Assembly: GCF_054482525.1 (NCBI RefSeq)
Contig: NZ_CM137006.1
Direction: 5' to 3' (one strand)
Length of the DNA stretch: 64,000 nucleotides
Positions 50,101-53,100 of the stretch are shown here, piece after piece (the stretch's first letter is position 1; each line of letters opens with the position of its first letter). The position numbers were made by a program, and so were the translations under genes. The notes under the pieces were generated by a model. The model saw only the letters and a list, made by a program, of their open reading frames with translations, ran no database searches and was not told where the DNA came from.

Positions 50101-53100
50101 ACAGAGCGGTATCCTCGCCTGCCAATTGTGTGTCATAAAGGGTATAAAGCGAGGTGAGATGTGCCGTAGACGCATCAGCGTCGACTTGAATGGACGTGCT
50201 AAGCGTGGAGCTACCATTTTCCAGGCTAGCTTCAATGGTATCCGGTCTCGCTCCTGTTTCTCTCGAGGAGCGGGTATTGGTATAAGTGACGGTAGCTTTA
50301 CCCTGTTCGTTCGTCACGGCTTGGCCGCCGTTCGTCATTTCGGCAGATTTTGTTCTGCTGGTAAAGCTCACAGTCACACCTTTTACCGGAAAGCCATTAT
50401 TATCAACGATTGTGGCGGTGATGACGCTGCCGGAGCTGTTCTGCGGGGTACCGGCGATTATGCGGTCTGGCACAGCCGTCAACTCGATAATTTTTGCCGC
50501 CGCTGTGTCGCCAATAAAATGCACAGTTTTGTTGTCGCTGGCACCATTATTAGCCAGTGATGCAGTGACCGTCTGCTCACCAAAGGCAACGCCTGCGAGA
50601 GAGGCCTGCGCGATGCCAGACTCATTGGTATTACTCACTCCCGGGGTCAGGGTGAGTCCTGAAGAGGCTGAGCTGAATGTTACCGGAAGATTGTTCACCT
50701 CATTGTCGAACTGATCTTTAACCGTTGCAGTTAGCGTTGCGTTATCGACGCCATTACCTGTGATCTCATCTTTTGACATCTGCAGGACAACCTGAGCCGA
50801 GGTTTTGTCCGCCACAAACGTTACCGGCTGCGAATCACTGGTATTGTTATTACCCAGCGTTGCGGTAACCGTATGCGTGCCCGCTTTTTTACCTTTGAGC
50901 GTGACATGCGCTTCGCCATTGGCCTGAGTGATGGCAATACCGTTATTTTCGAGGGTAAAGTCTGCCGCAACGTCCTGTGGCATGGTGAAGTTCACCGTTA
51001 TTCCCGCCACCGGATGATTCGACGGATCTTTCACCGTTGCCGTCAGCTGCACGCTGTCACTGTTATTCGTCACCACCTGTTGAGCAGGGATGTTCAGGGT
51101 GACCTGCGCGTTGCTGGCATCGGGCGCAATATTGACTGTCTTCGTATCGTTGTTGCCGTTAGGCAGTGTGGCTTCGGCCGTATGAACACCCAAAACCGTG
51201 CCCTTAAGGGTAACTTCAGCAACACCACTGTCGTTAGTATTGCTCGTGCTCTGACTAAGTTGAGTATCAGCCGGGTCGGTACTGAAGGTGACCGGTAGAT
51301 CTTTTACTACGTTATCAAAAGGATCTTTCACTGTTGCTGTCAGCGTCGTCTCATCCACGCCATTCCCAATGATTTCCGCTTTCGATGTTTGGAGGACGAC
51401 AATCGCGTTGTCCTTATCCGCCACGAATGTGACTGGCTGCGCATCGCTGGCATTATTGTTACCCAGCGTTGCGGTAACCGTATGCGTGCCCGCTTTTTTA
51501 CCTTTGAGCGTGACATGCGCTTCCCCATTGGCCTGGGTAATGGCAATGCCGTTATTTTCAAGGATAAAGTTTGCTGCCACGTCCTGTGGCATGGTGAAGT
51601 TCACCGTTATTCCCGCCACAGGATGATTCGACGGATCTTTCACCGTTGCCGTCAGCTGCACGCTGTTGCTGTTATTCGTCACCACCTGTTGAGCAGGGAT
51701 GTTCAGGGTGACCTGCGCGTTGCTGGTATCGGGCGCAATATTGACTGTCTTCGTATCGTTGTTGCCGTTAGGCAGTGTGGCTTCGGCTGTATGAACACCC
51801 AAAACCGTGCCCTTAAGGGTAACTTCAGCAACACCACTGTCGTTAGTATTGCTCGTGCTCTGACTAAGTTGAGTATCAGCCGGGTTAGTACTGAAGGTGA
51901 CCGGTAGATCTTTTACTACGTTATCAAAAGGATCTTTCACTGTTGCTGTCAGCGTTGTCTCATCCACGCCATTCCCAATGATTTCCGCTTTCGATGTTTG
52001 CAGAACGACAACTGCGCTGTCCTTATCCGCCACGAATGTGACTGGCTGCGCATCGCTGGCATTATTGTTACCCAGCGTTGCGGTAACCGTATGCGTGCCC
52101 GCTTTTTTGCCTTTGAGGGTGACATGCGCTTCGCCATTGGCCTGGGTAATGGCAATGCCGTTATTTTCAAGGGTAAAGTTTGCCGCCACGTCCTGTGGCA
52201 TGGTGAAGTTCACCGTTATTCCCGCCACCGGATGATTCGACGGATCTTTCACCGTCGCCGTCAGCTGCACGCTGTCACTGTTATTCGTCACCACCTGTTG
52301 AGCAGGGATATTCAGCGTGACCTGCGCGTTGCTGGCGTCGGGCGCAATATTGACTGTCTTCGTATCTCTATTGCCGTTAAGCAGTATGGCTTCGGCTGTA
52401 TGAACACCCAAAACCGTGCCCTTAAGGGTAACTTCAGCAATACCGTTCTCATTAGTATTACGCGTGTTCAGACTCAGTTGCGTGTCTGCGGGGGAGGTGC
52501 GGAAGACTACTGACAGATTTTTAACCACGTTATCAAAAGGATCTTTTACTGTTGCTGTCAGCGTCGTCTCATCCACGCCATTCCCAATGATTTCCGCTTT
52601 CGATGTTTGCAGAACGACAACTGCGCTGTCTTTATCCGCCACAAACGTCATTGGCTGTGTATCGCTGACATTGCTGTTAGCCAGACGAGCCGTGATCATA
52701 TGCGTGCCCGCTAACGTGCCGGTCAGGGAGGCGATTGCAACCCCGTTACTATCCGTCATGCCTTTTCCGCCGTTGCTAATCGAGAACCGACTTGCGACGT
52801 CGTTTGGCACAGTGAAGGTGATTTCTTTATCTTTTAGTGGGTTGCCATTTTTATCCTGCAAGGTTGCAGTCATATGTTGCGGAGCTGTGTTGGTGACGGT
52901 GATATCACCTGAAGGCACACTGAGGGTCAGGGCAGCAGTACTTTGATCACCGATAAAATTCACCTGTTGATTGGCCTGGGAACCAGAGCTCACAGAGGCC
53001 GTAACCCTATAATCACCGTTTTTTAAACTGGTCAGCGTAGCTGTGGCGATCCCGTCGTGGCTATTCACTTCGGTTTGGCTCAGTTTCGCTGCTGCTGAAT

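Follow-up and report, generated by a model that had tools for sequence, protein, structure and literature searches.

INTRODUCTION

The Escherichia coli adhesin gene yeeJ has been described in two variants, the MG1655 type and the UMN026 type, which differ by a 906-bp repeated section comprising three Big domains (Martinez-Gil et al. 2017, Sci Rep 7:11326; PMC5595812). Here, we analyze the yeeJ gene in a 64,000-nucleotide (nt) stretch of E. coli DNA (NCBI RefSeq assembly GCF_054482525.1, contig NZ_CM137006.1), which we refer to as the window, and in which an initial annotation had pointed out tandem 609-bp repeats and ascribed them to recent duplication by unequal recombination. We find that the window very probably carries the rare longest (three-unit) allele of an old yeeJ copy-number polymorphism, rather than a fresh duplication, and that the K-12-type allele would be derived from such an array by deletion.

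The UMN026 and MG1655 variants concern the same gene, the same locus by a transfer RNA (tRNA) gene, tRNA-Asn, and the same repeated Big_1 region as in the window, and the 906 bp that separate them equal exactly the step from the chimeric K-12 allele described below to a two-unit array (7983 − 7077 nt). The window gene does not fit the UMN026-type long variant (+906 bp): it is one unit longer, and its array amounts to +1515 nt, or five Big domains, relative to MG1655. Moreover, two length variants were reported in PMC5595812, whereas the present analysis distinguishes four classes (the chimera and arrays of one, two, and three units). Word searches of that article returned no “duplication”, “unequal”, or “hybrid”, with its sole “tandem” standing in a mass-spectrometry reference, and it appears not to treat MG1655 as a deletion chimera. 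We found no description of the one-unit allele, the three-unit allele, or the chimeric K-12 domain in PMC5595812 or in the 2019 survey of inverse autotransporters. The three-unit allele is a small extension of the known yeeJ length series, by one step, and involves no new mechanism. In-frame variation of domain repeats is well known in bacterial adhesins.

Two other adhesins invite comparison. The invasin-like molecule YrIlm of Yersinia ruckeri is cited in PMC6714894 for its almost identical immunoglobulin (Ig) domains and, going by that mention, resembles YeeJ in its type Ve stalk of Big_1 domains, its recent-looking tandem copies, and the resulting scope for length variation or mis-assembly. 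Compared by description, it is unlike the window array, in which the unit consists of two different domains and the copies, up to three in number, are 90–96% identical in DNA. UpaH is cited in PMC5595812 and PMC6714894 as an example of sequence variation and tandem-repeat mis-assembly. As described in these citations, it is like yeeJ a large E. coli adhesin gene with internal tandem repeats that vary between strains, but unlike yeeJ it encodes a type Va (classical) autotransporter with a beta-helical passenger and no Ig stalk.

RESULTS AND DISCUSSION

Three diverged 609-bp units form an in-frame array in yeeJ

In the window, yeeJ is a single long open reading frame (ORF) on the minus strand (47135–55747), which, according to the ORF list and its translation, starts at an ATG with MATKKR and encodes 2870 amino acids (aa) followed by a stop codon. 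In a self-comparison of the sequence shifted by 609 nt, identity was at least 0.7 from 50675 to about 52115, which delimits a repeated stretch of 50675–52724, or 3.37 units. A separate repeat search returned three copies with spacings of 609 and 609 nt; Tandem Repeats Finder, whose longest period is 500, is blind to the array. The units lie head-to-tail and in frame (203 codons each), leaving the ORF intact. The presence of three in-frame tandem 609-bp Big_1 units in yeeJ, as first annotated, is thus borne out by both the shift analysis and the repeat search.

Pfam matches resolve each unit into two Big_1 domains, one of A type (about 97 aa) and one of B type (about 106 aa). In domain phase, the array proper of three units occupies 50816–52642 on the minus strand (gene nt 3106–4932, aa 1036–1644). 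In the direction of transcription, its domains, all on the minus strand, are A1 (52352–52642), an A-alpha domain that comes first in all alleles compared; B1 (52034–52351), of B-internal type; A2 (51743–52033), of A-beta type; B2 (51425–51742), of B-internal type; A3 (51134–51424), of A-beta type; and B3 (50816–51133), the B-last domain, which is the terminal B in all alleles compared. The array is flanked on the same strand by two older, diverged Big_1 domains, the A-like A4 (50513–50815; 54–57% aa identity to A1–A3) and the B-like B0 (52643–52930; 41% aa identity to B1–B3). Since the head of A4 and the tail of B0 are weakly homologous to the array domains, the repeat signal reaches down to about 50676 and up to about 52724.

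The DNA identities of the units in domain phase are 92.0% (first and second), 90.0% (first and third), and 94.9% (second and third); in the phase of the initial annotation, which counted from 50676, the corresponding values are 88.5%, 85.4%, and 92.9%. The truly duplicated segment is a B-A pair (B1-A2 versus B2-A3), with 96.4% DNA identity. At the protein level, copies of the A type are 84–99% identical and copies of the B type 95–98%, compared with 20–57% for all other pairs of Big_1 domains in yeeJ. Therefore, the array copies are indeed far closer to each other than to the other Big domains of the gene (84–99% versus at most 57% protein identity). However, their description as nearly identical at the nucleotide level holds only as high similarity, since the units share 90–96% of their DNA sequence and the longest exact run common to two of them is 97 nt.

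Three ORFs of 171–176 aa on the plus strand, antisense to the array (51389–51907, 51998–52513, and 52416–52946), were considered and judged to be by-products of the repeats.

The units are at least as diverged as yeeJ alleles

We next compared the divergence within the array with that between alleles. The duplicated segments B1-A2 and B2-A3 differ by 16 synonymous and 6 non-synonymous changes, corresponding to a synonymous divergence (dS) of 0.117, and the pairwise dS of whole units is 0.17–0.32. In comparison, dS over the orthologous 5′ 3.1 kb of yeeJ is 0.05–0.095 between the window and K-12, O157, CP53, or GF60. Because the dS between units (0.12–0.32) equals or exceeds that between alleles, the duplication is not recent. 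In addition, the three units vary at 70 sites, of which 47 are third codon positions, and the ratio of non-synonymous to synonymous divergence (dN/dS) is about 0.1, from which it follows that both copies have long been under purifying selection. Three-unit arrays are also present on several diverged allele backbones. Altogether, the claim that the duplication is recent does not survive this comparison, given the dS values of the duplicated segments and the units, those between distant alleles, and the multiple backbones.

The array has nevertheless not been static. Over about 6.8 kb of gene sequence flanking the array, only 5 substitutions separate the window from strain UID2309220033, whose array has two units; the copy number of yeeJ, as far as such alleles indicate, still changes. 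The remaining differences between these two arrays sit in blocks in which one unit bears variants of the paralogous unit, a pattern that reads as the signature of gene conversion, and mosaic painting reveals shuffled blocks in the B region of the arrays. Identical tracts between units extend to 319 nt in 18KM2445 and 249 nt in GF60, against 97 nt in the window, and these two tracts are freshly homogenized. Variation within populations, which had also been put forward, is not indicated, since copy number was uniform among the sampled genomes of each clone or allele type.

yeeJ alleles fall into length classes with 609-bp steps

We extracted arrays from eleven alleles plus three more. One layout fits every allele examined: A-alpha, followed by n pairs of B-internal and A-beta, followed by B-last, with n = 0, 1, or 2. 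One-unit arrays (n = 0) occur intact in CP53 and A10 (2465 aa) and frameshifted in WWCOL-256. Two-unit arrays (n = 1), which have one B-internal/A-beta pair fewer than the window, occur in O157:H7, UID2309220033, and AST215 (2660 or 2667 aa) and, frameshifted, in S10 (7984 nt). Three-unit arrays (n = 2) occur in the window, 18KM2445, GF43, and GF60 (2870–2871 aa), frameshifted in NCTC9038, and on another backbone in G1/2 (2863 aa). The first A and the last B domain retain their own sequence type in all strains compared: A-alpha is 94–100% identical between strains but only 84–89% identical to A-beta, the type of the internal A domains. The A3 domain of the window and the A2 domain of UID2309220033, a two-unit strain, share 100% identity.

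These results confirm the predicted length polymorphism between strains, with arrays of one, two, and three units at one site in 609-bp steps and proteins of about 2465, 2660–2667, and 2863–2871 aa, next to 2358 aa for the K-12 type. The window protein, at 2870 aa, is longer than that of K-12, as had been noted, and of the 512 additional residues, 505 are due to the array. In silico polymerase chain reaction with the published primers 4225 (gatcaaagtactgctgccctg) and 4226 (gctatcgacgccattacctg), which flank the array, predicts amplicons of 693 bp for the chimera and 1599 bp for two units, the two described variants, and of 990 bp for one unit and 2208 bp for three units, as in the window. As such, these primers would separate all four length classes. 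When adhesins are typed from genomes or YeeJ is compared between strains, the copy number of the array should be scored.

Three-unit arrays are rare among complete genomes

To place these classes, we surveyed 5,426 complete E. coli genomes. The unit sequence is found in 2,910 of them, and at least one full unit in 1,272. All 33 rows sampled from the remaining roughly 1,640 genomes show the 311-bp pattern of the chimera. Among 26 sampled genomes with full units, two copies are present in 23, a single copy in one, and the three units of the window type in one; the remaining genome, O157 strain Z1504, gives three matches that stem from a two-unit array split by an insertion sequence, and such split arrays inflate the counts of unit matches. 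We estimate that two-unit alleles are present in about 1,200 complete genomes and one-unit alleles in few. Ranking by similarity to the internal unit identified 28 complete genomes with three copies, and no four-unit array was seen among the 60 best matches to that unit. A synthetic four-unit query was also tried and proved uninformative, since non-collinear pieces are joined and two-unit genomes came out on top. About 2,000 more genomes retain just a 2.46-kb remnant of yeeJ (23 of 60 sampled rows).

Fifteen of the complete genomes are of the window type. The 8688-bp yeeJ region is 100% identical in three of them, 99.8% in eleven, and 99.3% in the fifteenth. Their sources are humans, dogs, a pig pathogen, and seawater, they stem from different laboratories, and all have three units. 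Because the three-copy count is repeated in independent complete assemblies, it is not an artifact.

Several observations on the annotation and integrity of yeeJ were made along the way. In Z1504 (O157:H7), the inserted element belongs to the IS3 family and lies in the second B domain of the array, leaving two yeeJ pseudogene fragments; insertion sequences or frameshifts also occur in yeeJ of several other sampled genomes. Among the annotated matches, K-12-type (chimera) alleles alone receive the gene name yeeJ from RefSeq (PGAP). The label “Ig-like domain-containing protein” is given to most alleles with two or three units, and a few longer alleles have the product name “inverse autotransporter adhesin-like protein YeeJ” without a gene name. 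Consequently, searches by gene name miss the longer yeeJ alleles.

The K-12 allele carries a chimeric domain

K-12 yeeJ aligns to nt 1–3209 of the window gene and then from nt 4702 onward, without 1515 nt, or 2.5 units. Its DNA junction, VADKDRAVVVLQTSKAEIIGNGVDETTLTATVKDP/SNHPVAGITVNFTMPQD (...ACAGTGAAAGATCC/GTCGAAT..., with the slash marking the join), marks the fusion of an A-domain head with a B-domain tail, which are joined in the protein at LTATVKDP/SNHPVAG. The resulting chimeric Big_1 domain corresponds to nt 3106–3417 of the K-12 MG1655 yeeJ gene. The crossover lies within GTGAAAGATCC, inside a 23-nt motif common to all A and B domains of the array. This motif, CTGACRGCRACRGTRAAAGATCC, encodes LTATVKDP and occurs once per array domain, six times in all (52539–52561 on the minus strand in A1; 52242–52264, 51930–51952, 51633–51655, 51321–51343, and 51024–51046). 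The tail of the chimera is 96.6% identical to B3 but 91.3% identical to B1 and B2, and is thus of the B-last type.

An A-B array can give rise to the chimera by deletion, whereas tandem duplication cannot produce the reverse change, and we therefore read the K-12 form as derived. The short K-12 yeeJ is, on this comparison of alleles, most simply a deletion derivative of an A-B array. This bears on the reading of the extra length relative to K-12 as an expansion: the array does explain the extra length, but not as an expansion by whole units, given the 2.5 units and the chimera. Since K-12 has the chimeric domain and is without 2.5 units, part of the 512-aa difference is a loss in the K-12-type lineage. 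As such, the K-12 reference YeeJ, which is used in functional work and in surface-display engineering, would contain a chimeric Ig domain made by deletion.

Origin of the three-unit array

In the explanation we favor, the 609-bp (203-aa) repeat unit encodes two Ig-like Big_1 domains of the extracellular stalk, and copy number would shift by occasional unequal homologous recombination between misaligned, diverged units. Because the units are 4–10% diverged, exchange between them is expected to be rare. Patchy gene conversion would reshuffle the internal segments, with the two end domains holding their positional identity. The K-12 type would have arisen by an in-frame deletion that fused an A-domain head to the tail of the last B domain where the two share 11 nt exactly and match at 21 of 23 nt. 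The third unit of the window is as far from its neighbors as yeeJ alleles from separate E. coli lineages are from one another. Each unit would add two Ig domains and is expected to lengthen the reach of the C-terminal lectin-like tip. The invasin rod, with five domains, is roughly 18 nm long; by analogy, the stalk may gain on the order of 7–8 nm per unit.

The initial annotation read the array as a recent tandem duplication in situ, arising in the lineage of the strain by unequal crossing-over between sister chromosomes. The near-identical UID2309220033 allele with its two units does imply a recent change of copy number in this allele family, and parts of adjacent units are 97–100% identical. 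However, the middle unit has a dS of 0.12–0.23 from both neighbors and carries private substitutions, a single duplication in the two-unit relative would leave 31 or more mismatches, compared with 11 when a single deletion is made in the window array, and several diverged backbones, one encoding 2863 aa, carry three units; we consider a recent duplication improbable. A less remote possibility, though still an unlikely one, is that the third unit was imported by misaligned, unequal recombination between two different two-unit alleles of different strains, rather than descending vertically from an old duplication. The differences from UID2309220033 are confined to sharp blocks (gene nt 3615–4184 and 4569–4833), with the rest identical, and window B2 is nearest to B1 of AST215 (98%) and window A2 to A2 of GF60 (99%) rather than to their own neighbors. 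On the other hand, no exact-match donor was found among the eleven alleles compared, and gene conversion within the array yields the same block pattern; import would in any case be a variant of the explanation we favor and does not contradict it.

An assembly artifact, in which the real copy number differs from the assembled one, might be suspected given that tandem repeats of 609 bp are longer than short reads and that identical tracts reach 249–319 nt in other strains. In the window, however, the longest exact repeat of 97 nt can be bridged even by 150-nt reads, the reading frame is intact, and three units recur in the 15 near-identical complete genomes and in 28 overall; the chance of an artifact is close to negligible. 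For the same reasons (the 97-nt repeat and the 28 genomes), the array is a site of modest risk only, and not the likely site of assembly collapse or expansion that it had been taken for. It is also very unlikely that yeeJ is a fast-switching contingency locus, whose copy number changes frequently within clonal populations and varies adhesin length in a phase-like manner. In-frame tandem repeats of surface adhesins are the classic substrate for such switching, and very close alleles do differ in copy number, but all sampled O157:H7 genomes have two units, bar the one split by an insertion sequence, and the window-type genomes have three units in 15 of 15 cases. Furthermore, from what is generally known of homeologous recombination, a divergence of 4–10% together with short identical tracts should strongly depress RecA-dependent exchange between units.

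Several points weigh against an old polymorphism with a deletion-derived K-12 type. Neither the deletion nor the duplication considered above converts one array into the other in a single clean step, and therefore extra conversion or import events must be assumed. The polarity, with the K-12 form as derived, comes from comparison among these alleles and is to that extent provisional. A scan for an outgroup, in which exact matches to the motif encoding LTATVKDP were sought in one genome per species, gave no Escherichia match; it returned only four chance matches, which are unrelated, and the motif is absent from the one E. coli genome of that collection. The allele counts derive from sampled rows and place totals rather than a whole census, and one genome has four unit matches. 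For the window's own isolate, the count of three comes from the assembled sequence. With regard to reach, biofilm assays found no functional difference between the MG1655 and UMN026 types (PMC5595812).

Stalk length might also be under selection to match the thickness of surface polysaccharide, with 0.5, 1, 2, or 3 units allowing the tip to clear the O-antigen or capsule, an idea to which we give little credence. yeeJ lies about 45 kb from the region for O-antigen chain length and biosynthesis (wzzB-ugd-gnd) at the far end of the window, and stalk length and O-antigen type could therefore be co-inherited as a linked pair. If such matching did occur, the widespread K-12-type chimera would reflect adaptation toward a shorter stalk instead of a neutral deletion.

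Many partial YeeJ proteins (1480–1750 aa), found in a search with the first 1000 aa, were considered as possible products of contig breaks at the array, and this was ruled out. Four contigs encoding partial YeeJ carry K-12-type alleles and end 1.2–1.8 kb downstream of the chimeric domain. Since they are of the K-12 type and end past the chimera, these partial proteins are no evidence of assembly collapse at the array. Many draft assemblies do break a contig within K-12-type yeeJ, of which the 609-bp array is not the cause.

Gene, locus, and domain composition

The window gene is YeeJ, a type Ve inverse autotransporter adhesin and the orthologue of K-12 b1978. It measures 8613 nt, compared with 7077 nt in K-12 (2358 aa, counted from an older start codon). 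The window is E. coli, with 3 mismatches over 47.4 kb relative to strain SCU-102, whose yeeJ is identical and is likewise annotated in RefSeq with 2870 aa. The gene order asnT-yeeJ-yeeL-shiA-amn is common to the window, K-12, and SCU-102. In the window, the tRNA-Asn on the asnT side of yeeJ lies at 56060–56135, and yeeL, which adjoins yeeJ and encodes a family-9 glycosyltransferase of 350 aa, at 45511–46563 on the plus strand. yeeL is intact in the window, SCU-102, and the CP53-type and A10 strains, and is annotated as a pseudogene in K-12.

Pfam matches in YeeJ comprise the IAT beta-barrel (aa 144–419; IAT_beta PF11924, E = 2.6e-113), about 19 Big_1 domains in the passenger, Invasin_D3 (aa 2566–2667), and Invasin_D4 (aa 2678–2751). 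LysM is absent from the 25 Pfam rows listed for the window protein; the LysM peptidoglycan-binding domain of K-12 YeeJ was demonstrated by experiment (PMC5595812). NCBIfam holds no YeeJ-specific model, and the IatC N-terminal model scores under its cut-off on the window protein. The array unit has a single close relative with a solved structure, the intimin fragment 6tpl (E = 4e-6).

Outside the array, yeeJ is 97.4% identical to K-12 over nt 1–3209 and 86–88% identical over the 3′ 3.6–3.9 kb. Similar values are seen with the K-12, O157, and S10 alleles, at 96–97% over the 5′ 3.2 kb and 86–88% over the 3′ 3.6–3.9 kb (gene nt 4933–8613; 47135–50815 in the window). By these identities, yeeJ appears to be mosaic, its anchor and proximal stalk being conserved and its distal stalk and tip highly divergent.

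Other features of the window

Collinearity between SCU-102 and the window ends at 57231; beyond tRNA-Ser, SCU-102 has zinT and IS1397, with no phage genes annotated. In the window, the end of a prophage adjoins tRNA-Ser(CGA) (57127–57216), and this region (57127–61027) contains an integrase-like ORF (57269–58294) and an 823-aa phage exonuclease (58556–61027), both on the minus strand. The window contains four tRNA-Asn genes, at 25859, 28268, 30092, and 56060. One of them is adjoined by a tyrosine integrase, followed by the gene for an RHS core protein with a TPR-protein gene (25859–31600 and 35729–39910), as mapped via the SCU-102 annotation of a 99.99%-identical sequence. This integrase-RHS region has the appearance of an island integrated at a tRNA-Asn gene.

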